NCBI GenBank assembly: GCA_036679605.1
Contig: JAZDCZ010000407.1
Coordinates: 64,001-128,000, forward strand
DNA length: 64,000 nucleotides
Direction: 5' to 3'
Origin: Gemmatimonadota bacterium
GTDB taxonomy: Bacteria > Gemmatimonadota > Gemmatimonadetes > Gemmatimonadales > GWC2-71-9
The position numbers and the translations under genes were made by a program. The notes under the pieces are model-generated. The model searched no databases. It was not told the origin of the DNA and worked only from the letters and a program-made list of their open reading frames with translations. Of the stretch, positions 15,740 through 60,345 are shown piece by piece. Positions within the stretch are counted from its first letter, which is position 1. Each line of letters starts with the position of its first letter.

Positions 15740-15843
15740 CGGTGGACATCACCCGTATCTGATGCTATAGTTATACATGAGGAAATCCATTCATGGATTC
15801 AGTGCGCGTTCCGTAGGCAATGCTGTTCGGGAAGAATATGATC

Positions 15844-18081
15844 ATGAGCAAGACTCTCTACATATTAGTCGGTCTGCCAGGGTCCGGTAAGTCATGGTAC
15901 GCGACGCACGAGTTGAAGGCTGTGAGGCGGGTGAGCCAAGATGATATGGGCAGAGATGTGCATATGAGAGCCTTCACCGCCGCCTTGGCTGCTGACGAGT
16001 CCGTGGTTGTGGATCGCGTGAACTTTGACCGCAGCCAACGGGAGAGGTACATCACCCCTGCCAGGCAGCGCGGCTACCATATCGTATGCGTCTGGTTCGA
16101 TGTGGATCGGGCGACTTGTATGAGGCGGCTGTCTGGGAGGAAGGGACACCCGACCGTGTCTAAGGACGATGACCACGAGCGAATAGTGGGACACTTCGCC
16201 AAGATGATGGTGCAGCCGCTGGGGGACGAGTACGACGAGTTGAGGGTGGTGTCCAAGCGCACGCACGCGAAGGTGGAGGACATACGGGATGAGTGCGAGG
16301 GCAGGCGGACTATCGTCGTGGGCGATATACACGGCTGCTTCGACGAGTTCATGCTCCTCCTGCAAAAATGTGGATATAGCCCAGAGGACATCGTCGTGAG
16401 CGTCGGTGACTTGACTGATCGCGGACCGAAGAGTCGAGAGACATTGGAGTGGTTCTACAGCACGCCCGGGACGCATGTGGCGGAGGGGAACCACTGCAAC
16501 AAACTGAGACGGCTCTGGTCCGGACGCCGGGTCAAGATATCCAATGGATTGGGTTCCACAATCGAGCAGTGCGATGGCATGGATCATAAGGCAATCGCCG
16601 CGTGGATGTCCCTGTGGCCGCAGATCATTCGAGTCCCAGACATCGGTGGTCTGCCTGCGTATGTGGTACACGCCGGCGTGGACGGGACCCGTCCGATCGA
16701 CAGACAGAAGGTGGAGGATTGTTTGTACGCGCGGTGTCTCGGAGGCAAGGACTATTTTGACGAGGACGGCGGGGCGTGGTGGTATCACACACTGGACGGC
16801 TCGTTTGTCGTGTTGAGTGGACACGCTATCCATGACAATCCGCGCCCAGTGGAGTGTGCATATCTATTGGATGGTGGCGCATTCCAAGGCGGGACGCTAC
16901 GGGCTCTGGTGATCAATGGTGAGGGGACGGAGGTGTTCGAGGTGGACAGTTCCGGCTATGTGACGTCGACTGAACCCAAGACTCCGGTGCAAGCGAGGGA
17001 GGAACTCGTTGCGGAGGGTTTGATCCGTAAGGATGAACTCGGGGACTTGGCCGTCTACACATACACAGATGCCTGCGTGCATGCGCGCATGTGGGACAAC
17101 ATCACCATCAACAGCCGAGGTCATGTGTTTAATCGAGTCACAGGGGAATGCGTCGCGTGGTCGTTCCCGAAGTTCTTCAACATGGGCGAGATGCCAGAGA
17201 CGCAGGAATATGTCCTGCCGTGGACTGGGGGTTTCGCGGCGTTCGAGAAGATGGACGGATGGTTGGGTAACCTCTATAGGCTGGATGACGGGCAATATGC
17301 GATATCCACGCGAGGTTCTTTCAAGAGTCCTGGCGCACTCTGGGCGACGCAATTCCTACGGGACAACCATGACCTGTCCGGCCTGCCGGACGATGTCACG
17401 CTCGTGTTTGAGCTGATAAGCCCGATCACGAGGATCATAGTGGACTACGGTGACAAAGAAGCTCTCACACTTCTGGCGGCCTTCAACAGGCACACTGGGG
17501 AGGAGTACGCTTGGCATAGGGTTATGGAATGGGCTAGTATATACAAGTTCATCACGCCGACGGTGTATTGTGGGGATTTCGCGGAATGCCGCGCCACCTT
17601 GGCTCATAGCTCCGGCAAGGACATGGAGGGATTCGTCGTGAGGTTTCACAACGGCTTGCGGGTCAAGGTGAAGGGCGAGGATTATCTGCGCCGTGCGAAA
17701 ATAGTTTCCAATATGACGCCGCTGTCCGTGTGGGGCGCCATGTCGTCGGGCAAAGTGTTGGACGAGTACCGCGACGCGGTGGACGCGGATTACAGGGGAC
17801 AATTGGACGCCATGGCTGATGAATTGGAAGAGCGGTGGGCCGCAGTAAATGAAGAAATAGACAGTGAGTTCGCCTGTAGCTTTCCGGGAATGACTGCCCA
17901 AATATCCGATGAACACGAAGGCAGGAAGGGTTTTGCCGAGAGAGTTGGGAACCTGACGCTGCGCCACAGGCGCGTGATGTTCGCCAGACTCGACGGAAAG
18001 TCGGAACTCATTGACAAGTACATAATGGGGATCATCAGGCCCCATAACAACGAAATGAAGGTGATAAATGGTGATTCGTAG
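15844..18081 (+). CDS. Polynucleotide kinase / metallophosphoesterase / T4 Rnl1-type RNA ligase fusion
   Basis: GLPGSGKS; GDIHG, GDLTDRGP, GNH; KFFN, EKMDG, STRG, EGFV, KVK. Confidence 0.9.
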   Translation: MSKTLYILVGLPGSGKSWYATHELKAVRRVSQDDMGRDVHMRAFTAALAADESVVVDRVNFDRSQRERYITPARQRGYHIVCVWFDVDRATCMRRLSGRKGHPTVSKDDDHERIVGHFAKMMVQPLGDEYDELRVVSKRTHAKVEDIRDECEGRRTIVVGDIHGCFDEFMLLLQKCGYSPEDIVVSVGDLTDRGPKSRETLEWFYSTPGTHVAEGNHCNKLRRLWSGRRVKISNGLGSTIEQCDGMDHKAIAAWMSLWPQIIRVPDIGGLPAYVVHAGVDGTRPIDRQKVEDCLYARCLGGKDYFDEDGGAWWYHTLDGSFVVLSGHAIHDNPRPVECAYLLDGGAFQGGTLRALVINGEGTEVFEVDSSGYVTSTEPKTPVQAREELVAEGLIRKDELGDLAVYTYTDACVHARMWDNITINSRGHVFNRVTGECVAWSFPKFFNMGEMPETQEYVLPWTGGFAAFEKMDGWLGNLYRLDDGQYAISTRGSFKSPGALWATQFLRDNHDLSGLPDDVTLVFELISPITRIIVDYGDKEALTLLAAFNRHTGEEYAWHRVMEWASIYKFITPTVYCGDFAECRATLAHSSGKDMEGFVVRFHNGLRVKVKGEDYLRRAKIVSNMTPLSVWGAMSSGKVLDEYRDAVDADYRGQLDAMADELEERWAAVNEEIDSEFACSFPGMTAQISDEHEGRKGFAERVGNLTLRHRRVMFARLDGKSELIDKYIMGIIRPHNNEMKVINGDS

Positions 18082-22980: not shown

Positions 22981-23565
22981 TTACTCGCTCGCTGTCGCGG
23001 CCATTCGCTCGCGGGTTTGCTTGTCTGCTTCGGCCATCGCCGCCTCCGCACTCTCGAAAGTACCCATGTCAAGTCCATCCCACGCCGCCAGCACATCCTT
23101 CCCGGCCTCTGACAGCCCTAACTCGCCTTCGTCGAGATGACTGGCTTCTAGTGCGTCGTCGAGAATCTCTTGGTATACAGACGATGCAGCGGAGTCCTTG
23201 TCCATCGCCGTCTCTATGCCTCTGAGATCCTGCGGACGCACGACGGCGTTCACGCCGCTGTTCTGTTTCACAGCGCGAATGCGGGACACGATCATCACTT
23301 CTTTGGACACAATGTTGAGCTGTCGCCCGATCATGAGTTCCTCTGTGGTGGTCAGGTCGAATTGTTGCGCCAGCGTCCGCCGAAGTTCTGCGGAGGTGGT
23401 TTTCGCTCCCCTGTCAAATGTCTCTTGCTTTTTCTTGGCTAGCTTGATCGCTTTTTTTTCCAGCGTCTTTCGCCTGTTTTCGGCCATCAGCTCCGCCTTC
23501 CGCAGCTCCTTGAGATCCATCTTGCCGAGCGGTTTTTGTTTCCTCTCAAATATATTCAGTCCCAT
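22981..23565 (-). CDS. ESCRT-III/Snf7(CdvB)-like coiled-coil protein
   Basis: Amphipathic MGLNIF start, basic helical hairpin, acidic C-terminus, 194 aa. Confidence 0.55.
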   Translation of the reverse strand: MGLNIFERKQKPLGKMDLKELRKAELMAENRRKTLEKKAIKLAKKKQETFDRGAKTTSAELRRTLAQQFDLTTTEELMIGRQLNIVSKEVMIVSRIRAVKQNSGVNAVVRPQDLRGIETAMDKDSAASSVYQEILDDALEASHLDEGELGLSEAGKDVLAAWDGLDMGTFESAEAAMAEADKQTRERMAATASE

Positions 23566-23568
23566 GTC

Positions 23569-23952
23569 TTATTCTCCCACTGGTATATACACATACGCCG
23601 TGCTATCCCCGCGCCATCCCGCACCGGGAAAGTCGATTGCTGCGTATATGATTGTCTCATTGCAAAGCCGCATCTCCGCCGTCATCGCATCCACCGCCCG
23701 GCGATTGGCTGTCCTGCATATCGTATCTAGTGTGGCCTCGCAGCCTATAATTTCCCTGCGTTCTCTCGCCGTCTCGTCATCTGTCAGCGACCGCACGGTT
23801 CCGCGTCTACTTGTGCCGCACGGCACCACGGTCGCCACCTTCGCAAGAGCCTCGCCAGTTGCCCACCGTGGGAACTTGCCACCACCGGCCAAGCTGCGGG
23901 CATACACAGTCAGGTCGCCATCGACGCTTTCAACTCTGTGTATAGTCCACAT
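23569..23952 (-). CDS. Hypothetical protein
   Basis: Tightly packed in operon. Confidence 0.55.
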   Translation of the reverse strand: MWTIHRVESVDGDLTVYARSLAGGGKFPRWATGEALAKVATVVPCGTSRRGTVRSLTDDETARERREIIGCEATLDTICRTANRRAVDAMTAEMRLCNETIIYAAIDFPGAGWRGDSTAYVYIPVGE

Positions 23953-23954
23953 GA

Positions 23955-24794
23955 TCAGAATCTCGCTATCGCATCAGACGCGGCCATGTCCCGCGCCGTC
24001 ATCCGTTTCTTCGGACCTGACATCTGTGCGTATATCCGAGTACTCTCGACGGAGTCGTGTCCCAGCCTATCCTGTATGTCCGACATCTCAAATCCGCCCT
24101 CCACCATGTGGACCGCCAGTGAATGGCGCAGCGAGTGGATTCGGCTCCATCTGTACTCGTTTGGGTTGTATGACGGGCACCGCCTCGCAACACGCTGGAA
24201 TCTACGCAGGATGGTCTTGGAACAGGCCTGTCCGCTATCCTGCCCAGGAAACACCCAAGGGCTGTCAATGTCCAGACCCTCGCGGCTTTCACACCAGTCG
24301 CGCAGAGCTCGCATTGTGCCATTGTCCAGCACGACATCGTGTACCATGCGGGTCGCTATCTCGTTACGGATGCGTCGGCGTTTTTTGACGCGGGTGACGC
24401 GGATAACCTCCGCCCGACCCGTGCGCCGCCCTTTTGGACTCCAACCCAAATCCTGCCATTGCAGGAGGGTATATTCCGCTGCGCGCAGTCCGCACAGATA
24501 ACCGACAGCCATGAGCGCGTATTCCTGCGGCGTTTCGCACGCTTTTTTCAGCTCCTGCATCATCGACCGTGTGAACCATCGGTCGGGCGAAAGACTTTCC
24601 CGCGGCTTGTCTGTCCGGGTCAGCCCAGCGTCCGGAACGAGTCTCCGTACGATTGCCAAGGCTTCCGTAATTGGCAGGTCGAGCGCTGGGGAGATGGCGT
24701 CGGCGAGTCCTTGCCCGACGATACGGACAAGGATACGGCGTCTGGTGTTCGGCGTCAACACCGCCAACCCCATAATATCGTCAAGCGTTTCCAT
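23955..24794 (-). CDS. Tyrosine recombinase/integrase
   Basis: GLRAAE, HSLRH, LGH..STRIY catalytic set. Confidence 0.9.
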   Translation of the reverse strand: METLDDIMGLAVLTPNTRRRILVRIVGQGLADAISPALDLPITEALAIVRRLVPDAGLTRTDKPRESLSPDRWFTRSMMQELKKACETPQEYALMAVGYLCGLRAAEYTLLQWQDLGWSPKGRRTGRAEVIRVTRVKKRRRIRNEIATRMVHDVVLDNGTMRALRDWCESREGLDIDSPWVFPGQDSGQACSKTILRRFQRVARRCPSYNPNEYRWSRIHSLRHSLAVHMVEGGFEMSDIQDRLGHDSVESTRIYAQMSGPKKRMTARDMAASDAIARF

Positions 24795-25744
24795 TACGCC
24801 GTGTCCTTAGCTTTGGATTCGGTTTCGGTGTCGCTTGATTCATCCGACAGATCATTGCCTTCGAACACTTCAAACTCGGCCATCGCTTCCGCGTCCGCCG
24901 CGTCTGGCTCCGCCGTTTCGGTTGCTTTGGCGGGCTCGTCGGCCTCAAACTCAGCCATACAGGCCTCGGCTTCTTCATCCAAGTAATCGAACTCGACCGA
25001 CTCGGCTGCGTCCGCCGCCGCGTCCGCCGCTTCGATGGCCAACTCCGCTTCGACCTGATTATCGACAATATCCTCGGTGTCCGGCAGCCCAGAAGTCCCG
25101 GCAAGCCTCATCATTTTACGGGTGTGCAGAAAATCCTCGCATCGGTATATTTGCCGTCCTGCGAATTGCACCGTCGAGTTCTCGCGCGAGATGTCTTTCC
25201 TGAGTGCGGCTAAGCGACCTGCGAGACGTCTCTTGATGTTTGTGCTTTTCTCGGCTTTCCCATCGCGGATGATGTCCTTTTCTTGCTTCTCGAGTTCGTC
25301 CAGCTTCTCGCGGGCGTCGTCCTTCGTCGCACGGAGCTTCCCGAGTGCGTCGCGGACCCTCTCCTCTTTCTCGATCTCGGCGATCTCGCGCCGGTAACTT
25401 TTTGACGCGGCGTATTTTATGTAATGTCCAAGGCCGGGTCCTGGAGCCGTCGGGGGTGGTTCGATATCCAAACCCTGCTGCTGCTTGACATATTCGACAT
25501 AGTCGTCGAATCGTTCCATCATGTCGCGGAGATCTTCGGTGTCAAGTTCTTTGAAGTGCACAGGCGGCGATCCACTGGCGAGTCGATACCGCAGCCCTTT
25601 CTTCCAGTAGTTCATGCCCCAGCCTGGCGGTTGCCAGACGATTCCGCCACTCTCGACCACGGTCTTGATGTCCGAGAGTTTCCTGTAGAGTATCCTTTCG
25701 GCCGCAGCCAACCTGTCAAGATGCGTTTCCTTCGGTACAGCCAT
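24794..25744 (-). CDS. ESCRT-III/Snf7-like coiled-coil protein with N-terminal extension
   Basis: Shares G....S...RR.LA pattern with 22981-23565; very acidic tail. Confidence 0.5.
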   Translation of the reverse strand: MAVPKETHLDRLAAAERILYRKLSDIKTVVESGGIVWQPPGWGMNYWKKGLRYRLASGSPPVHFKELDTEDLRDMMERFDDYVEYVKQQQGLDIEPPPTAPGPGLGHYIKYAASKSYRREIAEIEKEERVRDALGKLRATKDDAREKLDELEKQEKDIIRDGKAEKSTNIKRRLAGRLAALRKDISRENSTVQFAGRQIYRCEDFLHTRKMMRLAGTSGLPDTEDIVDNQVEAELAIEAADAAADAAESVEFDYLDEEAEACMAEFEADEPAKATETAEPDAADAEAMAEFEVFEGNDLSDESSDTETESKAKDTA

Positions 25745-34843: not shown

Positions 34844-37800
34844 ATGTCTTTGCGCAGATATGTTTTCGTGAAACGGATACTCTTCCGTTGGATTAAGCTC
34901 CCTGGCGGCGCTGATCGTGTGATGCGCGTGGGTGAATACATTGATTTCGATTTTGAGACGGAGAGAGGCCATTATGTTGAGGGTACGCTCAGCAGCCCGT
35001 TGGGCGGCACATCCTTCCGGATCGTCGCCCGCGAGTTTTTAGGGCTTCTGGATGACCGCAATGGTTCGCATGTTTTGGAGGAGGTAGGCCTTGCCTGTGA
35101 TCTGGCATGTGGTGGCAGCGGGGGGGGTATTGTAGGCTCAACTGGAGCCACTGGAGCCACTGGTATTGGAGTCACAGGCCCCACTGGGCCTCTTGGCGGT
35201 CCTTTAGGTCCGACTGGCCCGACAGGTCCGGCAGGAGCGCCAACCGGAGCGACAGGGGTTGGTATAACGGGTCCAACTGGTCCAACAGGCATTGTTGGTC
35301 CAACAGGCTTTGGTTCAGCAGGACCAACTGGATCAACTGGAACGATGGGATTCATCGGACCCACAGGCCCCACTGGGCCTCTCGGTGGCCCTCTAGGTCC
35401 GACTGGCCCGACAGGTGCGGTGGGTCCAGCAGGAGCGCCAACCGGAGCAACAGGGGTCACAGGAAACACTGGCAACACTGGTGCGATAGGTCCGACAGGC
35501 GTCGGACTGTTGGGTCCAACAGGTGTGGGTGCAGCAGGCTCGACAGGAGCTACTGGTCCCATTGGGCCAGCCGGTGCGCCGACAGGAGTCACTGGGGCGA
35601 CAGGCACAGCGGGTCCAGCCGGAGGCACGGGTTCCATGGGTTTGCCAGGACCTGTAGGCAGCACTGGTGCCACTGGTATTGGATTTACTGGTGCTACTGG
35701 CTCAATTGGTCCAGCCGGTGGTTCCACAGGACCAACTGGGGCTACTGGATCCGTTGGTCCGGCAGGCGCGCCCACTGGGGCCACCGGAGCCACTGGCGTG
35801 ACAGGTGCAGGAGCCACTGGCCCTACTGGCCCGGCTGGCGCTCCCACAGGAGCGACAGGCATCACGGGTTCGACAGGGTTGGTAGGCACTACTGGGCCGA
35901 CCGGCGTAGGTCTGGTCGGCAGCATGGGATTCACAGGTAGCACGGGCTCCACAGGCAGCGCAGGTCTTATTGGAGCTGCAGGCAGCACTGGCACTACTGG
36001 TATTGGTATGCCGGGTTTTACAGGTGCTACAGGCGCGACTGGTCCAGCCGGAGGTCCCATTGGCCCGACGGGGGTTACAGGTCCAATCGGGCCAGCAGGT
36101 GCGCCGACCGGAGCCACTGGCTCGACAGGTGCCACAGGTATGGGTGCGACTGGTCCAATAGGTCCGGCAGGAGCACCGACCGGAGCAACAGGTGGTACTG
36201 GAAGCACGGGTTTGACAGGTATTGGTCTGCCAGGACCGACAGGCGCGACCGGATCGGGTTCCACAGGAGCCACAGGAGCCACAGGTCCTGCTGGTGCACC
36301 AACTGGAGCCACGGGTTCCACGGGTGGTACAGGCTTGGCGGGTGTGACTGGATTGGTTGGCAACACAGGATCTGCTGGAGCGACAGGCGCTGCTGGTCCG
36401 GCTGGTCCGACTGGTTTCACAGGCGGCGCTGGCATCACTGGATTGCAGGGTGCTACAGGCCTGATAGGTACCACGGGTTCGACTGGTACCACAGGTTTGA
36501 CTGGCGCAGCCGGCGAGTGGTTCAGTGGGGTGGGCGTGCCGTCGCCTGGTCTTGGCAAGATCGGCGATTTTTACATCGACAGCATTACGGGTGACTACTT
36601 CGAGAAGACTGGGATTACCACTTGGGCATTCCGTGGGAATTTGAAAGGTTCAGGTGGAGGTACAGGTTCGACAGGTTCGTCGGGCGTCGTTGGTGCCACT
36701 GGAGCCGGAGCCACAGGTTCCACAGGGTCCACAGGACCCGCTGGCCCAGCAGGCGCGCCAACTGGTTCTACGGGTTCTACTGGTATCGTGGGTGCCACAG
36801 GCGCAACAGGACCGGCTGGAGCCTCTACAGGAGCGACTGGCGGTATCGGGGCAACAGGCACCATTGGAGCCACTGGGATTGTTGGTCCAACAGGTGCTGG
36901 TGCGACAGGCGCGACTGGCCAAGGTTCCACTGGCTCCACTGGAGCAAAAGGAAGCACGGGTAACACTGGATCGGCAGGTGCTACTGGATTTGGGTCCACC
37001 GGAGCCACTGGAAATCCCGGGACAACAGGGGCAACCGGATCCACGGGTTCTGGATTAACAGGAGCCACAGGCGCTGGTGTAACTGGTGCCACTGGTGCCA
37101 CTGGTTCGACTGGTTCAGGAACCACGGGGGTCACAGGTGCGACAGGTGTCACCGGACCTGCTGGTGCACCAACAGGATCGACGGGTGCCACCGGACCTGC
37201 AGGTATTGCAGGTCCTGCGGGCGCACCGACTGGCGCGACAGGTTTATCAGGCCCTGCGGGTCCGAGCGGAATCACAGGTCCTACCGGCCCGACTGGCATC
37301 TTTGGAGCAACTGGTCCGACAGGTTCGTTTGGATCCACTGGATCCACTGGATTTGGCGGTAGCACAGGTTCCACGGGTTCTGCGGGTTCGACAGGAACTA
37401 TCGGTGGAACTGGTTTAACTGGTTCAACTGGTGCGGATGGTAGTGAATGGTTCACAGGTGTTGGTGTACCGTCACCCGGACTGGGTGTCGTCGGTGACTT
37501 TTACCTTGACGGTTTTGCGGGCGATTATTTTGAGAAGACCGGAACAGGCGTTTGGACTTTCCGCGGAAATTTGAAGGGGCCGACCGGACCTATTGGCCCT
37601 CTTGGCGCGACTGGAGTTGGAGTGACTGGTTCCGTTGGTCCCACAGGCCCACTCGGCGGACCATCGGGTGCGACTGGCTTGGTTGGTCCTACTGGCGCAA
37701 CAGGTCCAGCAGGAGCGCCGACAGGAGCTACTGGAGTAACTGGCTCGCTCGGTCCGACTGGTGCAACAGGTGCTGGTATCACTGGCCCAACTGGGTTAGG

Positions 37801-38578
37801 TGTCACAGGCACGGCAGGAGCTACAGGTACGACTGGTCCTGTCGGACCCGCTGGGGCTCCCACTGGTCCAACTGGGCCTGCTGGACCACCTGGCATAGCT
37901 GGACCGGCTGGCGCGTCTACTGGTGCGACCGGATCGACAGGTCAAACTGGTCCAACTGGTTCCACTGGCATGTCTGGCTCAAAGTGGTTTGACGGCATCG
38001 CCGCGCCGACGGGCGGGCTGGGCAATGTGGGAGATTTTTACCTCAATGATACGACTGGGGAGTATTTCGAGAAGAGCGGCACGACCATCTGGACATTGAA
38101 GGGTAACCTTACCGGCCCTCTCGGTGCAACTGGCGCGACTGGCTCACTGGGTCCGATTGGATCCACTGGATCCACTGGATCCACTGGGGTGGCTGGTCCC
38201 AACATAAGCGGCCCATACCAAGGCGATCTCCGCGACGACGAGAAACCTTGGATAAGGATCAAGAACTTGGATTATACTCTTATCGCGACATTCCGGTTCG
38301 CTGGGACGGGTGAATGGACTCCTGCGGCTTTTAGGGCGGTTCTGCAGGCCAAAACCACTCCGGTCGCGGGGCAGAGACACCAAGTGCGTCTTTGGGATTT
38401 GACGCATGGTGTCCCAATTGCGACATTGGACGAGCTGCTGACGGAGGATAAGGTGATATATTCCACTGTTTCGTTGGCAAATCTTCCCGCAGTCGAAGCT
38501 ATATTTGAGGTGCAGGTTAAGAGGTCATCCACCTCCACGCCGGAGGGAAGGATTTCGTATGTGATGCTCGACCTTTAG
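34844..38578 (+). CDS. Collagen-like (Gly-X-Thr) fibre protein
   Basis: Long GPT/GAT/GST repeats interrupted by three WFxG..GLGxxGDFY..YFEK..W..GNL modules. Confidence 0.9.
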
Positions 38579-52465: not shown

Positions 52466-53965
52466 TTAGAACTCAAAGAAAGCAAAGGCCGAGTGGAGGC
52501 CGAGCGCGGCCAGCGACGCCCAGAATATAGTGAGTCCCACATCACGGCTGACACCCGTGTGTGATGGCTTAGCCCGCGAGCCGATGGCGTATCCCAAGGC
52601 CGCGATCAACAGCCCGCTACCCGCCGTCTTGAGCAGTACCCATCCAATCCCTTTCGGGAGGGTGTCTGTCCAGAGGGTGGCGAAATAGTTCCGCCGGAAG
52701 GCGGACACAGTGGCACCGTCGGACGACAAAAGGAAGGCCACAAGGGACGCGTAACAGTTGGCCGCGAAGGCGATTAATGTCAGGATTGGTGCGGCGATTG
52801 CCATGGATAGCGATATGTTGCCGTACAGGTAATGTCTAGGGTTAGCCCCAAGGTTGTGCATGGCGTCGAATTGGTGTGTCAATCGCCTAGTCCCGATATC
52901 TGCCGCTATGGACGCGCCACATTTGCCTGCGATCAATACACATATCAGCAAGGGAGCCACCACGCGGAACGCACTATACCCCGTCGCCGCGAGGAACTCC
53001 TCCATGACCAGCGGCAATGTCATGTCCCTGTACGGCAGTTGCGAGAACCCGAAGAAGATTGTGACGAAGCCAGTGAGAGTTCCTGCGATGACGGCGTAGA
53101 GCGCGGTGTTCCCAAAGAGGACCATGCGCAGGTAGTGCAGGAGGTAGTGTACTTTCCATTGTGGTCGTGACCAGCCACGGAACGGTGCATTGGCGGCATC
53201 CAACAGCGTCAGTGCGACTTCGCCAGGAGCCTCCACTATGGCTCGCATTTGTCCGCTAACTGCCACCACCCGTTGCTGTACCTCTTGCTCTTCCTCAGTT
53301 TGAGATCGGAAAAAGTCGTCCAGTTCCTGCGGAGTCACATCACGCAGCCGTTTTTCGGACGGATCCAGCAGTACTAATCTCGGCTGGTGGGGGATGAAGG
53401 CAGCGTAATCATGGCTCACCACGATGGTTGTTCGCCCTGAGTTTCGGTGTGTCCGTGATATCAAGTCTGCTACGGCTTTTGCCCGTTGTGGGTCGAGTCC
53501 AGTGGTTGGCTCATCGAACAGTAGGATATCTGGCTCCATGGCGAGTGTCCGAGCCAACGCGACTCGTTGTCGTTCGCCACCACTGAGGGTACCTGTCTTA
53601 GCATGAAGCGGCACGGACATCTCGGCGAGCCGGCGTCTTGCTTCCCCTCCCTCCGCCTGTCTCTTCCGGTGGTCGATGGCGAATTGGACATTGTCGAGCG
53701 GGGAGAGTTCGTCGAACAGCGCGAGTTTCTGAAAAACCACGCCGATCGTCGCATCATTTTTAGTGTGTATGTCGCCAGACACCTCCATATGGCTTGTCTG
53801 ACGAGCCATGAGATTAAGCAGAGTGGACTTGCCGGATCCGCTCGGTCCAGCTAACACAATGAATTCTCCATCCTCCACGATCAGGTTTGCGCTCCGCAGC
53901 AGCGTTCGCCCTTCAGGTAGCGTGACAGACAGTGTATCGATGCTCAGTGCGGGTTGAAGCTTCAT
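52466..53965 (-). CDS. ABC ATPase fused to MlaE-like permease
   Basis: GPSGSGKS, LSGGERQR, DEPTTGLD; GASIAADIG..DAM..LG. Confidence 0.85.
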   Translation of the reverse strand: MKLQPALSIDTLSVTLPEGRTLLRSANLIVEDGEFIVLAGPSGSGKSTLLNLMARQTSHMEVSGDIHTKNDATIGVVFQKLALFDELSPLDNVQFAIDHRKRQAEGGEARRRLAEMSVPLHAKTGTLSGGERQRVALARTLAMEPDILLFDEPTTGLDPQRAKAVADLISRTHRNSGRTTIVVSHDYAAFIPHQPRLVLLDPSEKRLRDVTPQELDDFFRSQTEEEQEVQQRVVAVSGQMRAIVEAPGEVALTLLDAANAPFRGWSRPQWKVHYLLHYLRMVLFGNTALYAVIAGTLTGFVTIFFGFSQLPYRDMTLPLVMEEFLAATGYSAFRVVAPLLICVLIAGKCGASIAADIGTRRLTHQFDAMHNLGANPRHYLYGNISLSMAIAAPILTLIAFAANCYASLVAFLLSSDGATVSAFRRNYFATLWTDTLPKGIGWVLLKTAGSGLLIAALGYAIGSRAKPSHTGVSRDVGLTIFWASLAALGLHSAFAFFEF

Positions 53966-55104
53966 TTGCCTGCCTTTTTCGCACGGAGAGTTACCCATGC
54001 CACATTGCGCCTCAATGCGGTGGATCGTACTAGATGCACAATCTCCGGTCGAGTGACTCCGTTTTGGTCGAACATGACCGTCGATAGTATACTTTTCAGC
54101 GTCGGACCGAGCAATTCTATGGTGTGGTACATCTCCTGCCGTACATGCGGATCATCGATGAGCCTCTCCCGCAGGAAGTCGGCGGTGTGCGAGTTCTTGG
54201 CCATCGTTTCACGGTAGATGTCCGAAAGGAGTAGTTGAATCTGCTTATCGTCGCGCAGCCGCTGGAGAATTCCGCCCAGACGAGTTCTGAGTTCCTCGTC
54301 CTGCCGTGCCATGTCCCAAGTCTCATGCAACGCCTCGCGCAGTTCGTGTCGGTCGTCCTCCGGCATGTCAGATATCCAATCGCCGAGCCAGTCCAACATT
54401 AGTTCGTATGCGGCGCTGTAATTTCCCCGTACTATATTCCAAACAATCTGTGTTTTAGGAGCGTCGGCCAAAGCGTTGCTAGCAAGACGGCTCAAAGTGG
54501 GTGTCAGGTGTTCCTGGAGTATTGGACGCAGTCGCTGCTGTATCAGCGGCCAATCCTCGCCTAAGCGATCCAGATGTTTTTGGCTTATGGTTTGCATATC
54601 CCCGCTGTGGTTTCGTATTACCGCTCCAAACTCTTCACTGACCAGACCGATGTATGCCATAGCCAAGCCGCCCGCGATTGGTTTCCAAATTTCCGTGAGT
54701 TCGGTGCCATTATCGCGCCATGCCAGCGAGATGTGGTCGGCCACGCGCTTTCGTATGGCGGGTGGCAGCAAGGCGGACACGGTTTCCTCCGCCGACATCG
54801 GCGTCTGCCAGCAGGTCGCCAATGTGTTGGATAGGTCGCCCAACCTCTGATCGACGGACAAAGCGATTGTGTCCCAGTGGACGGCACCTACTTCCCCGAT
54901 GCGTCGCAGGCCATTCTCTGTGTCTAGGAACACAACATCCCCTGGAGAGATATTGTGTTCCCTCGGGGCAGGTATATGGAGTTCGCTTGTCGGTCTCAGC
55001 ATGCGTCGGCATACAATATATGCCGATCCGACTGCCCCCGACCCCGCTGAAAGCCACAGGACAGCTCCGAGGATTAGATGGATATTGCGGCTACCGCTGT
55101 GCAT
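53962..55104 (-). CDS. Membrane-anchored MlaD-like partner
   Basis: N-terminal TM, PGDVVF..RIGEV, long helical region; ATGA coupling. Confidence 0.55.
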   Translation of the reverse strand: MHSGSRNIHLILGAVLWLSAGSGAVGSAYIVCRRMLRPTSELHIPAPREHNISPGDVVFLDTENGLRRIGEVGAVHWDTIALSVDQRLGDLSNTLATCWQTPMSAEETVSALLPPAIRKRVADHISLAWRDNGTELTEIWKPIAGGLAMAYIGLVSEEFGAVIRNHSGDMQTISQKHLDRLGEDWPLIQQRLRPILQEHLTPTLSRLASNALADAPKTQIVWNIVRGNYSAAYELMLDWLGDWISDMPEDDRHELREALHETWDMARQDEELRTRLGGILQRLRDDKQIQLLLSDIYRETMAKNSHTADFLRERLIDDPHVRQEMYHTIELLGPTLKSILSTVMFDQNGVTRPEIVHLVRSTALRRNVAWVTLRAKKAGK

Positions 55105-55408
55105 TTATTTCTCTTTTATTCAAACGGCGTATCAACCCAGCGTCCGCTCGACCGATTATCATGACGGCTTCCAAACCGTCCGGCAGTTCATTCGTCTCAA
55201 ACTGCCACCATGTCAGCCCCCCGTCTAATGTCAGAAGCCTGTAGACACCATATGTTTCGTCATCTCCCAACCTTTGGGCGAATTTGTCTTTGTAGGCCTG
55301 AACCGTGAGTTCTAGTCCGGCGTTCCTACCCTGCACATCAAACAGCATCGCGATCACCAGCCCCCACACGATTGCTGTTGTGATTCCGATAGCGATTTGT
55401 AGCTTCAT
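55091..55408 (-). CDS. Small membrane protein
   Basis: N-terminal TM. Confidence 0.55.
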   Translation of the reverse strand: MKLQIAIGITTAIVWGLVIAMLFDVQGRNAGLELTVQAYKDKFAQRLGDDETYGVYRLLTLDGGLTWWQFETNELPDGLEAVMIIGRADAGLIRRLNKREINAQR

Positions 55409-55409
55409 G

Positions 55410-56546
55410 TTATTTTCCTGTCTCGGCGAATTTCTTGTATCTTTTTAGGTCATCCGGTTTCACAGAAGGCTTTATCCCCTTCAGTACGGAGAGGATATCC
55501 TGCATCGCGATGGGACGCCGGTCGTCCTTCCCGCCGGATTTTACGAAGTCCATGAAAGGTACGCTCGCGGATTTCGTTGCGAGGTTCTTTATGTCTGCGC
55601 CGCTGTAGCCGTCGAGGGACTCGCACAGTTTATTGAGATTGACATCGTCGTCGAGAGGTCTGTCACCGAGGTAAATTTCCAGCATGCGCATCCGCGCCGC
55701 CGTATCCGGCAGACCAAGATAAGCCATCGTATCAAACCGGCCAGGGCGCATCATTGCGTCGTCCAACATCCACGGTTTATTGGTGGCTCCGATGAATAAT
55801 AGACAGCGTTCCCCGCAGTCGAAGCCTTCCAACTCTTGTAGTATCTGCGGCACTACTCTTTGCATGACGGTTGATCCGCCCGACCCCCGACGTGGCGCGA
55901 GCGCTTCGATCTCGTCGATGAAAATGACGGCTTTCTCCTCTGCCTTCGCCGCATCGAACAATTTACTGACATTTTGTTCGGCCTCGCCGACCCATTTGCT
56001 CAGCATCTCGGCTGGTGACACCATGAAGAAGGTCGCGTCTATTTCGTTTGCCACGGCCTTCGCTATCATTGTTTTGCCTGTCCCTGGGGGGCCGTACACT
56101 AGCAGCCCGCCACCTGCTGAGATACCATACTCCGCCGCCTCTTCCGGATATGCGAGTGGGTGGATCATTTTGAGTCTGATTTCCTCCTTCACTTCATCCA
56201 GACCTGCGATGTCGTCGAAGCTGATGTCCGGTTTCTCTCGTACAATCCAGTCGTTGGCGTCGCTTCCATCATCTCCACTGTGATCCTTAACGCGGCCTTT
56301 CTTTCCGGACTTGCCTTTTTTTGCCGCGCATTCCTTCGCAAGGTCGATGAGCTGCTGCGCTAAGTCCTCCTGCTCGGTGCGCACATTGTCATCTGACCTG
56401 GTCTTGGCGATCCTGAGAAGGCAGTCTGCCGCCTGCATTAGGAATGGTTTGGCCTTGGCATGGTCACCAGCTTTGTAAGCAAGCAACCCTTTGGACTTCA
56501 GGCGATCGAATGTCTCGTACAATGGTGTTTTTGCGGTCACGGGCAT
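55410..56546 (-). CDS. Vps4/CdvC-like AAA+ ATPase with MIT-like N-domain
   Basis: Helical N-domain; REKPDISFDDIAGL, GPPGTGKT, LSKWVGEAE; SVKPDDLKRYKKF C-helix. Confidence 0.75.
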   Translation of the reverse strand: MPVTAKTPLYETFDRLKSKGLLAYKAGDHAKAKPFLMQAADCLLRIAKTRSDDNVRTEQEDLAQQLIDLAKECAAKKGKSGKKGRVKDHSGDDGSDANDWIVREKPDISFDDIAGLDEVKEEIRLKMIHPLAYPEEAAEYGISAGGGLLVYGPPGTGKTMIAKAVANEIDATFFMVSPAEMLSKWVGEAEQNVSKLFDAAKAEEKAVIFIDEIEALAPRRGSGGSTVMQRVVPQILQELEGFDCGERCLLFIGATNKPWMLDDAMMRPGRFDTMAYLGLPDTAARMRMLEIYLGDRPLDDDVNLNKLCESLDGYSGADIKNLATKSASVPFMDFVKSGGKDDRRPIAMQDILSVLKGIKPSVKPDDLKRYKKFAETGK

Positions 56547-58532: not shown

Positions 58533-58581
58533 TTTTTGACGATAATCCGGCTCATTTATAGCTGGGTACGATGGTTTGGTT

Positions 58582-58637
58582 CGGGCCGACGCGGACGGGT
58601 TATCTGGTAATGACTCCCGTCCGCACAAACTTGCCCG
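58582..58637 (+). ncRNA. Short Y RNA-like RNA
   Basis: CGGGCCGA-C-GCGGACGGG-TTATCT..CCCGTCCGC-ACAAACTTGCCCG, resembling the Ro-binding stem. Confidence 0.7.
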
Positions 58638-58693
58638 CCCCAGTCTTGCGATGCTTTGTCTCGGCGATTACTTGCCGAACAGAGGCTTCTGTG

Positions 58694-58724
58694 GCCGGAG
58701 CGGTTTGCCGCCTCGGCTTTTTTT
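58694..58724 (+). terminator. Terminator upstream of rsr
   Basis: GCCGGAGCGG-TTTG-CCGCCTCGGC plus T run. Confidence 0.65.
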
Positions 58725-58749
58725 GTGCGGACAGAGAAGGAGAATGGAG

Positions 58750-60345
58750 ATGGATTACTCAAAGCATGTGGCGGACAAGACCCCGCAGTCTGAGCCGATC
58801 ATTGGTCGCGAGGCGGACATGGCCAAAAATAGCGCCGGCGGGTTCTCGTTCGAGCTAGACAAATGGACGCAGCTCGAGAGGTTTCTCGTGTTGGGTACTG
58901 AGGGTGGAACATTCTACACAGGCGAGCGGAAGCTGACCCGGGAAAACATGTCCGTGATCTTGATCTGCGCGAAGGAGGATGGCCCGCGCGCCGTCGCTAC
59001 CATTGTCAGGTTCCGCAGGGAGAACCGTGCGCCGAAGGTGAACACACTGCTCTTCGCGCTGGCGGTCTGCGCCAAGATGGCTGGCAAAGAGTCCGCCACG
59101 GCGGCCAACGCGGCCGTCACAGAGGTTTGCAGCACGGCGACGCACTTGTTTGGGTTCCTAAAGTATGTCAAAGCCCTCGGAGGCACTGGTTCTGGCACCC
59201 GCCGGGCAGTTGCCCGCTGGTACAACTCTCGTGAGCCAGTAAACTTGGCGTACCAGGTCGCGAAATACCGCAGCAGGGAAGGTTGGACGCACAGGGATGT
59301 CCTGCGCGTGGCGCATGTTGTCCCAGAGACCGACGCCCACAACGATGTCCTCGCGTTCGCGGCTGGCAAGGCCGGGGCTGATCCGGAGAAGGCACATATG
59401 GAGATTCTTCGAGCGGCGGAGATCGCGGCTGGCGCGACCACGCCGGACGAGGTGATCTCTCTCATCCACGACTTCAGGTTGCCGTGGGAGTGCATCCCGT
59501 CGGACCTAATGAAGTCGCCGGAGGTCAATGAAGCATTGCTTCAGAACATGCCGATGACGGCCACGGTGCGACAGCTCGGCAGGATGACGGCCCTAGGGCT
59601 GCTCGGGCCGATGTCGGACACCGCGAATCTCGTCATCGAGAGGCTTTTGAACGCCGACGCGGTGAGGAAGTCGCGGATGCACCCGATCCAGGTGCTGGCG
59701 GCTTTGTCCACCTACTCCAATGGTGAGGGGGCTAGGGGATCCCTTAGCTGGAACCCGAACCAGTCGATTGTGGACGCCCTCGACGGGGCGTTCTATGCGT
59801 CCTTCGGGAATGTGGAGCCGACGGGCAAGAGGACATACCTTGCCCTCGACGCGTCCGGCTCGATGGGCTGGGGCGACATCGCGGGCATCCCTGGGCTGAC
59901 CCCAGCCAAGGCGACGGCGGCGATGTGTATGGTCACCGCTCGCACCGAGGCCAAGGGCAGCTTCCATGTGGCGGCCTTCTCGGACGAGATGATCCCGGTG
60001 GCGATCACGCCGAACCAGCGGCTGGACACCGCGATGAGGATTATCGCCGATGTCAACTGGGGCGGCACAGACTGTGCCCAGCCGATGCTCGACGCCCTTG
60101 AGAACGGGATCGAGGCGGACACATTCGTGATTTACACCGACGGGGAGACTTGGGCGGGTGCTGTCCACCCGTGCGAGGCACTCAGAAGATACCGCAGGGA
60201 GACGGGTATCCCAGCCAAGCTGGTCGTGGTTGGTATGACCTCGACGGGATTCACGATTGCGGATCCAAAGGACGCTGGAACACTGGATGTTGTCGGATTC
60301 GATTCGGCTGCCCCACAGGTCATATCGGACTTCGCTAGGGCGTAA
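58750..60345 (+). CDS. rsr: Ro60/Rsr TROVE-vWA RNA-binding protein
   Basis: NSAGGFSF, RFLVLGTEGGTFY, KYRSREGWTHRD, DASGSM, GGTDC, YTDGET. Confidence 0.95.
   Translation: MDYSKHVADKTPQSEPIIGREADMAKNSAGGFSFELDKWTQLERFLVLGTEGGTFYTGERKLTRENMSVILICAKEDGPRAVATIVRFRRENRAPKVNTLLFALAVCAKMAGKESATAANAAVTEVCSTATHLFGFLKYVKALGGTGSGTRRAVARWYNSREPVNLAYQVAKYRSREGWTHRDVLRVAHVVPETDAHNDVLAFAAGKAGADPEKAHMEILRAAEIAAGATTPDEVISLIHDFRLPWECIPSDLMKSPEVNEALLQNMPMTATVRQLGRMTALGLLGPMSDTANLVIERLLNADAVRKSRMHPIQVLAALSTYSNGEGARGSLSWNPNQSIVDALDGAFYASFGNVEPTGKRTYLALDASGSMGWGDIAGIPGLTPAKATAAMCMVTARTEAKGSFHVAAFSDEMIPVAITPNQRLDTAMRIIADVNWGGTDCAQPMLDALENGIEADTFVIYTDGETWAGAVHPCEALRRYRRETGIPAKLVVVGMTSTGFTIADPKDAGTLDVVGFDSAAPQVISDFARA

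Follow-up and report, generated by a model that had tools for sequence, protein, structure and literature searches.

The contig JAZDCZ010000407.1 (hereafter C343; 155,416 nt), deposited with the Gemmatimonadota assembly GCA_036679605.1 (G000), carries a set of ESCRT-III/Vps4-type genes on a giant phage-like element, and this set is a real feature of the DNA. The stretch under analysis (the window) comprises 64,000 nt, G000:C343:64001-128000, and its positions are used below unless a contig is named. Two of its genes encode P0002 (316 amino acids, aa; hereafter subunit a) and P0001 (194 aa; subunit b). The reading we favour, with a probability of about 0.58, is that a and b are divergent ESCRT-III proteins of an element that also encodes a Snf7-type subunit (P0056; subunit c) and a Vps4-type ATPase (P0003), and that this set would remodel the cytoplasmic membrane of the host.

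Both genes lie on the minus strand where a preliminary description of this DNA had placed them, P0002 at 24794-25744 and P0001 at 22981-23565. P0001 is an ESCRT-III-like hairpin protein that begins, as had been reported, with the residues MGLNIF. P0002 bears an extra N-terminal domain of 111 aa (residues 1-111), followed by an ESCRT-III-like hairpin domain (112 to about 270) and a very acidic tail. No similarity between the two proteins was detected by pairwise BLAST (E 0.46), whereas the comparison of their family profiles with hhalign gave a probability of 97.3% and an E value of 1.7e-11 over 164 columns. In addition, a hidden Markov model (HMM) of the P0002 family, built without any row of the P0001 family, recovered P0001 among the 168 open reading frames (ORFs) of the contig (E 2.9e-7). 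The relationship is thus visible only through profiles, BLAST being blind to it. The motif described earlier as common to both proteins is present at residues 45-69 of P0001 and 154-178 of P0002, and the register of that alignment coincides with that of the profile match. These results support that P0001 and the C-terminal domain of P0002 are paralogous hairpin proteins with the shape of ESCRT-III.

One important question is whether a and b belong to ESCRT-III. The layout proposed for them, a basic hairpin followed by an acidic tail, was found in both: the net charge is +12 in residues 1-103 and -14 in residues 104-194 of P0001, and +8 in residues 112-215 and -32 in residues 216-316 of P0002. 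AlphaFold2 (AF2) models contained a long hairpin followed by three more helices in P0001 (helices 18-55, 59-103, 111-144, 153-166 and 173-193; mean confidence score, pLDDT, 76) and two in the P0002 domain (residues 112-316; helices 2-53, 57-105, 113-142 and 144-157 in model numbering; pLDDT 80). A helix 1-2 hairpin plus shorter helices within about 200 aa, with a basic N-terminal and an acidic C-terminal half, is therefore predicted for P0001 and for the C-terminal domain of P0002. The hydrophobic start of P0001, a candidate membrane-anchor helix, is kept in alignment A1, residues 1-8 having a pLDDT below 50, and the 111-aa domain of P0002 stands in its place. When the P0002 domain was compared with known structures by Foldseek, the top match was CHMP2A-CHMP3 (probability 0.96, E 0.18), and nine of the ten listed rows with a probability of at least 0.75 were chains of the ESCRT-III superfamily. 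In the ESM Atlas, P0001 and P0002 were linked (0.93 and 0.90) to clusters of bacterial proteins with Snf7 on 16-20% of their members, and one distant member of the a/b families, among 69 proteins scanned, matched Snf7 with an E value of 2.5e-4 (21.2 bits, against a cut-off of 27.3).

Several results weigh against this assignment. The cut-off of Pfam Snf7 (PF03357) was not exceeded by any of the 42 and 54 members of the two families, and PspA_IM30 (PF04012) was matched neither by P0001 and P0002 nor by those members. No Foldseek match had an E value below 0.001, and VIA placed BAR domains and bundles above ESCRT-III. The hhalign comparison of a and b with the Snf7-positive family was weak (probability 3-6%, E 0.007-0.016); it spans up to 112-141 columns, while control coiled-coil families gave E values of 0.04-0.55, mostly over short stretches. 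A first hhalign run with a low-diversity alignment of subunit c found no match to a or b. In the comparison with PspA/Vipp1 suggested in the preliminary description, 24 planctomycete PspA proteins reached a probability of only 0.3-2% over 28-65 columns. Hence the earlier assignment to Snf7/ESCRT-III stands as regards shape, charge and genomic context, and is not borne out as regards Pfam Snf7 membership and a significant fold match; by their look and gene context, P0001 and P0002 are likely divergent ESCRT-III subunits outside Pfam Snf7.

The minimal module initially envisaged consisted of these two genes and the ATPase. The ATPase was confirmed, and a third, more canonical ESCRT-III-type gene was found past the end of the window. 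It encodes P0056 (G000:C343:148192-148797, equal to L001:8193-8798, plus strand) and stands alone ahead of a tRNA cluster. P0056 is 60-70% identical to chromosomal copies, and its family includes all five proteins that exceeded the Pfam Snf7 cut-off in 401 Planctomycetota genomes, these being more distant P0056 orthologues (family HMM E about 1e-50). P0056 itself and 50 of 50 close members fell under that cut-off. The family was present in 89 of the 301 genomes of its class, which argues against a role as the machine by which the whole class divides. The conserved helix at the end of P0056 resembles a MIM1 motif.

P0003 (378 aa; 55410-56546, minus strand) has a helical N-terminal domain, likely MIT, for which no Pfam MIT match was obtained. 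The protein matched Pfam AAA (E 1e-39) and Vps4_C (29.9 bits, cut-off 21.3), that is, a single classical AAA domain with a Vps4-type C-terminal helix. Its best NCBIfam match was the CdvC model (E 3.3e-71, residues 19-375), with 240 bits against a cut-off of 650. This agrees with the Vps4-like character attributed to it before. Its chromosomal orthologues (about 54-64% identical) lie downstream of those of a and b, and because all of them share a single operon in Phycisphaerae, the gene neighbourhood supports P0003 as the partner of P0001 and P0002. A sequence search of the PDB with P0003 returned mostly two-domain Cdc48 entries and was uninformative on Vps4. Plasmid and phage collections yielded only CDC48/FtsH-type proteins, none covering 80% of P0003, and a scan of IMG/VR for Vps4 returned only AAA matches of at most 41%, which were set aside. 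Directly downstream of the P0003 gene, and possibly co-transcribed with it, positions 52466-55408 (minus strand) encode a membrane protein of 105 aa, a helical protein of 380 aa and an ABC-ATPase fused to an MlaE permease (Mla/Mce-type lipid transport). The bin contains a second Vps4-like AAA fragment, 50% identical to P0003, on another contig of 10.5 kb (L002:6989-7972, minus strand; G000:C226), where no ESCRT-III neighbour was seen.

The co-occurrence of these genes was analysed in the best 80 of 218 confirmed stretches of a GTDB scan with the P0001 alignment, a choice that favours close relatives. The titles of 79 loci were of Planctomycetota/Phycisphaerae type or uncultured bacterium, and one was from Alphaproteobacteria. 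All four families share one chromosomal operon, whose genes encode, in this order, a membrane protein, a Ser/Thr kinase that bears zinc ribbons, a membrane protein of zinc-ribbon type, a protein of 485 aa with a P0002-type domain at its end, the P0001 orthologue, the third helical subunit, the Vps4-like ATPase and an SPFH-propeller protein. Among the loci with enough flanking DNA, the P0002 orthologue was directly upstream of the P0001 orthologue in 75 of 77 (the P0002-family HMM matching the upstream gene in 77 of the 80), the kinase was upstream in 64 of 68, and on the downstream side the P0056 orthologue was present in 64 of 69. In 41 of the 55 loci with at least 6 kb of downstream sequence the Vps4 orthologue followed, and the SPFH-propeller gene did so in 38 of 55. 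None of the kinase, zinc-ribbon, membrane and SPFH partners was found on C343, and the N-terminal domain of P0002 is unrelated to its chromosomal counterpart (hhalign 1%). In phylogenetic trees, the element versions of b (10 rows, 100/100), c and the ATPase each clustered with the same Phycisphaerae set (SH-aLRT branch support 100), apart from other planctomycete versions. The four-gene set was likely taken from a probable Phycisphaerae host; the nesting of the element copies within the Phycisphaerae set is weakly supported, so the direction from host to element is inferred. No trace of ftsZ was found in four of five operon-bearing genomes; in the fifth (G305) it lies on one contig, which may be a contaminant.

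Two variations of the chromosomal operon were also observed. In other Planctomycetota versions (L176, L189, L191, L192, L194, L199 and L202) a second, divergent AAA ATPase directly precedes the Snf7-type gene, so that the subunit lies between two ATPases. Pairs resembling nucleotidyltransferase-HEPN, a family assigned by eye, recur between the ESCRT-III-type genes and Vps4 (L008, L016, L029, L030, L044, L054, L058, L066, L072, L080 and L082).

The nature of C343 was then considered. The contig is compositionally uniform, with a tetranucleotide distance of 0.28 from the core of the bin, a measure that lies at 0.05-0.14 in the remaining 24 of its largest contigs. It encodes 24 tRNAs, bS21 (the sole ribosomal protein seen), IF3, DnaK, DnaJ, RuvB, RNase HII, RNase E/G, FtsH, Topo VI B and glutamine synthetase, together with methyltransferases and many orphan ORFs. 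Its relatives were found in metagenomes, on the contigs L167 (127 kb) and L168 (576 kb); their GC content is about 70%, and they have DnaJ, bS21, RNase E/G and a peptidase as common neighbours; synteny among the relatives extends across 56-71% GC. For P0023 and P0055 the longest recorded contig was 654,058 nt each. As a family, these giant elements comprise the partial 155 kb seen here and relatives of 127, 576 and probably 654 kb, and NusG is also present. The element RNase E/G is 44-46% identical to that of four operon-bearing genomes versus 37% to that of the genus of the bin. The bin contains ftsZ, and a search of 300 further genomes from its phylum did not find the P0001 family. Composition and gene relationships indicate that C343 is probably a fragment of a giant extrachromosomal element that was assigned to the wrong bin and whose host probably belongs to the Phycisphaerae. 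Judged by analogy of gene style, which we liken to that of huge phages, the element is likely a phage. The term phage-like used from the start is borne out by foreign composition, tRNAs and syntenic relatives. Virion hallmark genes were not seen: a PHROG scan of 125 of the 168 called ORFs of this partial contig found no capsid, portal or terminase, and the only terminase in the bin lies on a different contig. A search for Gp23 was likewise empty, as it was for its controls. No relative of subunit b or c was found in IMG/VR. The element genes are under purifying selection, as the ratios of nonsynonymous to synonymous substitution (dN/dS) show, with values of 0.10-0.60 in 12 of 13 gene pairs, the remaining pair being saturated.

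Further genes of the contig include a 1,244-aa collagen-repeat protein (34844-38578, plus strand), the only tail-type match, and a 3,415-aa protein (G000:C343:28516-38763; L172:516-10760) whose PHROG match is confined to a C-terminal NUDIX domain. Genes with a link to RNA repair are a TROVE/Ro60 protein (58576-60345, plus strand) and a 753-aa kinase/phosphatase/ligase-like protein identified by eye (15820-18081, plus strand); a 2',3'-cyclic phosphodiesterase gene is located further along the contig.

Between a and b lie a tyrosine recombinase (279 aa; 23955-24794, minus strand; Pfam Phage_integrase, E 1.9e-22) and a 127-aa ORF (23569-23952, minus strand) that had been overlooked. The recombinase had been thought to split the pair. 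Nothing is split, since the locus consists of four intact ORFs that are 1-3 nt apart or overlap. The recombinase has a short N-terminus and intact catalytic motifs. L165, L167 and L168 each have it at this place as well, between a and b (58-84% identity, start and stop codons abutting), and neither convincing att-like repeats flanking it nor a recombinase in any of the 80 chromosomal loci was found. A fresh insertion was rejected on the shared position and the lack of convincing flanking repeats, and from its conserved position the recombinase is an old, conserved resident gene of the element. It is likely a co-transcribed housekeeping gene, perhaps for replicon resolution, that would stand outside the membrane machine. 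The 127-aa ORF has an orthologue in L165 (64% identity, dN/dS 0.22), whereas L167 and L168 lack it at this place, and it has no match in Pfam, PHROG or NCBIfam.

From the gene content, paralogy, conservation, chromosomal operon and shared Phycisphaerae affinity, all observed, we infer the following mechanism. The basic hairpins of a and b would bind acidic membrane and co-polymerise with c on the host inner membrane. The Vps4-type ATPase would grip a C-terminal helix, the best candidate being the MIM1-like tail of c, and remodel or recycle the filament. The element, having dropped the host kinase, zinc-ribbon, membrane and SPFH partners, might thereby repair, bend or cut the host membrane during its own cycle, and the new N-terminal domain of a likely retargets the polymer to a site chosen by the element. 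A more far-reaching version, which we regard as doubtful, is that phages or phage-like elements of 500-650 kb in FtsZ-less Phycisphaerae encode a complete three-subunit ESCRT-III plus Vps4 of the kind known from eukaryotes and archaea, retargeted by the N-domain, with which the host membrane would be budded or compartmentalised or its division controlled.

It is unlikely, on present evidence, that a and b are decoys or modulators that do not form an independent machine but co-polymerise with host ESCRT-III/Vps4 to stall or divert it, blocking for example division or a membrane-based defence. Their divergence fits such a role: identity to host orthologues is about 30% for a and 42% for b, as compared with about 60-70% for c and 54-64% for Vps4, the stem in the tree is long (0.65), and a has acquired both a different N-domain and the -32 tail. 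However, the ATPase and the Snf7-type subunit have been kept intact on the element, and a pure inhibitor would not need them. Still less probable is that P0001 and P0002 are unrelated coiled-coil adaptors with a CdvA- or ESCRT-I-like role, P0056 being the sole true ESCRT-III protein. The missing Snf7 match, the fold matches led by BAR domains and bundles and the weak hhalign result are in its favour, but the full-length colinear helix pattern, the length and the charge polarity fit ESCRT-III, as do the high-probability Foldseek rows, the Atlas features and a weak profile match that spans more columns than most of those of the control coiled coils.

The least probable of the alternatives is that the contig represents a secondary replicon or an unusual planctomycete-like cellular genome, whose genes do a normal cell job after shuffling. 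DnaK, DnaJ, FtsH, RuvB, RNase HII, Topo VI B and glutamine synthetase would suit a cell, and so would the negative PHROG and IMG/VR results; against this, bS21 is the lone ribosomal protein seen, the contig has arrays of tRNAs, methyltransferases and a large number of orphan ORFs, the relatives hold their synteny across a wide GC range, and the 155 kb seen belong to an element of likely 600 kb.

Several known systems resemble the set proposed here. Archaea other than Asgard have ESCRT-III/Vps4 loci (the clades 'Main', Halo_FHA and Meth_adaptin; Makarova et al. 2024, PMC10936438) that, like crenarchaeal CdvB/CdvC, place several ESCRT-III-type genes upstream of a single-AAA ATPase of MIT type, as P0003 likely is, and the kinases and SPFH proteins of the archaeal loci recall the kinase, zinc-ribbon and SPFH partners of the Phycisphaerae source operon. 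The available text of that work describes ESCRT homologues as 'not in bacteria'; here, in contrast, the host lineage is bacterial, two of the three subunits form a family that has no name and stays under the Snf7 threshold, and the genes are scattered over a giant element without partners. Text S2.2 of Ravi et al. 2024 (PMC11237479) describes bacterial Vps4-like ATPases, among them those of Planctomycetes and Verrucomicrobia, with snf7 displaced by a TPR plus six-transmembrane gene; the Planctomycetota ATPase is alike, and the three ESCRT-III-type genes alongside it are the difference. Giant mobile elements with membrane-remodelling genes of the ESCRT-III superfamily are represented by huge phages with PspA (bioRxiv 10.64898/2026.10.24.761521, whose main text mentions neither Snf7 nor Vps4) and by Borgs with PspA/Vipp1-like proteins (bioRxiv 10.1101/2024.11.05.622173, the available text lacking the word Vps4). 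Those proteins are of PspA type, while C343 has three different subunits, no PF04012 match among a and b and an ATPase on the contig. The chromosomal Phycisphaerae operon has the same four gene families, but on the element they are dispersed, a carries a new N-domain and the recombinase lies between a and b. No literature on this operon or element was found within the reach of the search, which excluded subscription journals and bioRxiv supplements. The accessible part of a 2025 review (PMC7619361) states that a Vps4-like ESCRT-III partner appears absent in bacteria, and Phycisphaerae are described, in the available text of PMC6952346, as dividing by fission in the absence of FtsZ, through a mechanism that is not known.

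The four core genes, kept under purifying selection while the accessory genes are missing from the contig, point to a minimal working unit, and suggest that control of host membranes through an ESCRT-III/Vps4 set pays for the element. They offer four soluble proteins for direct reconstitution. If the more far-reaching version is true, this would be the first ESCRT-III/Vps4 machine on a bacterial virus, and it would give a handle on the role of the host operon, including FtsZ-independent fission.
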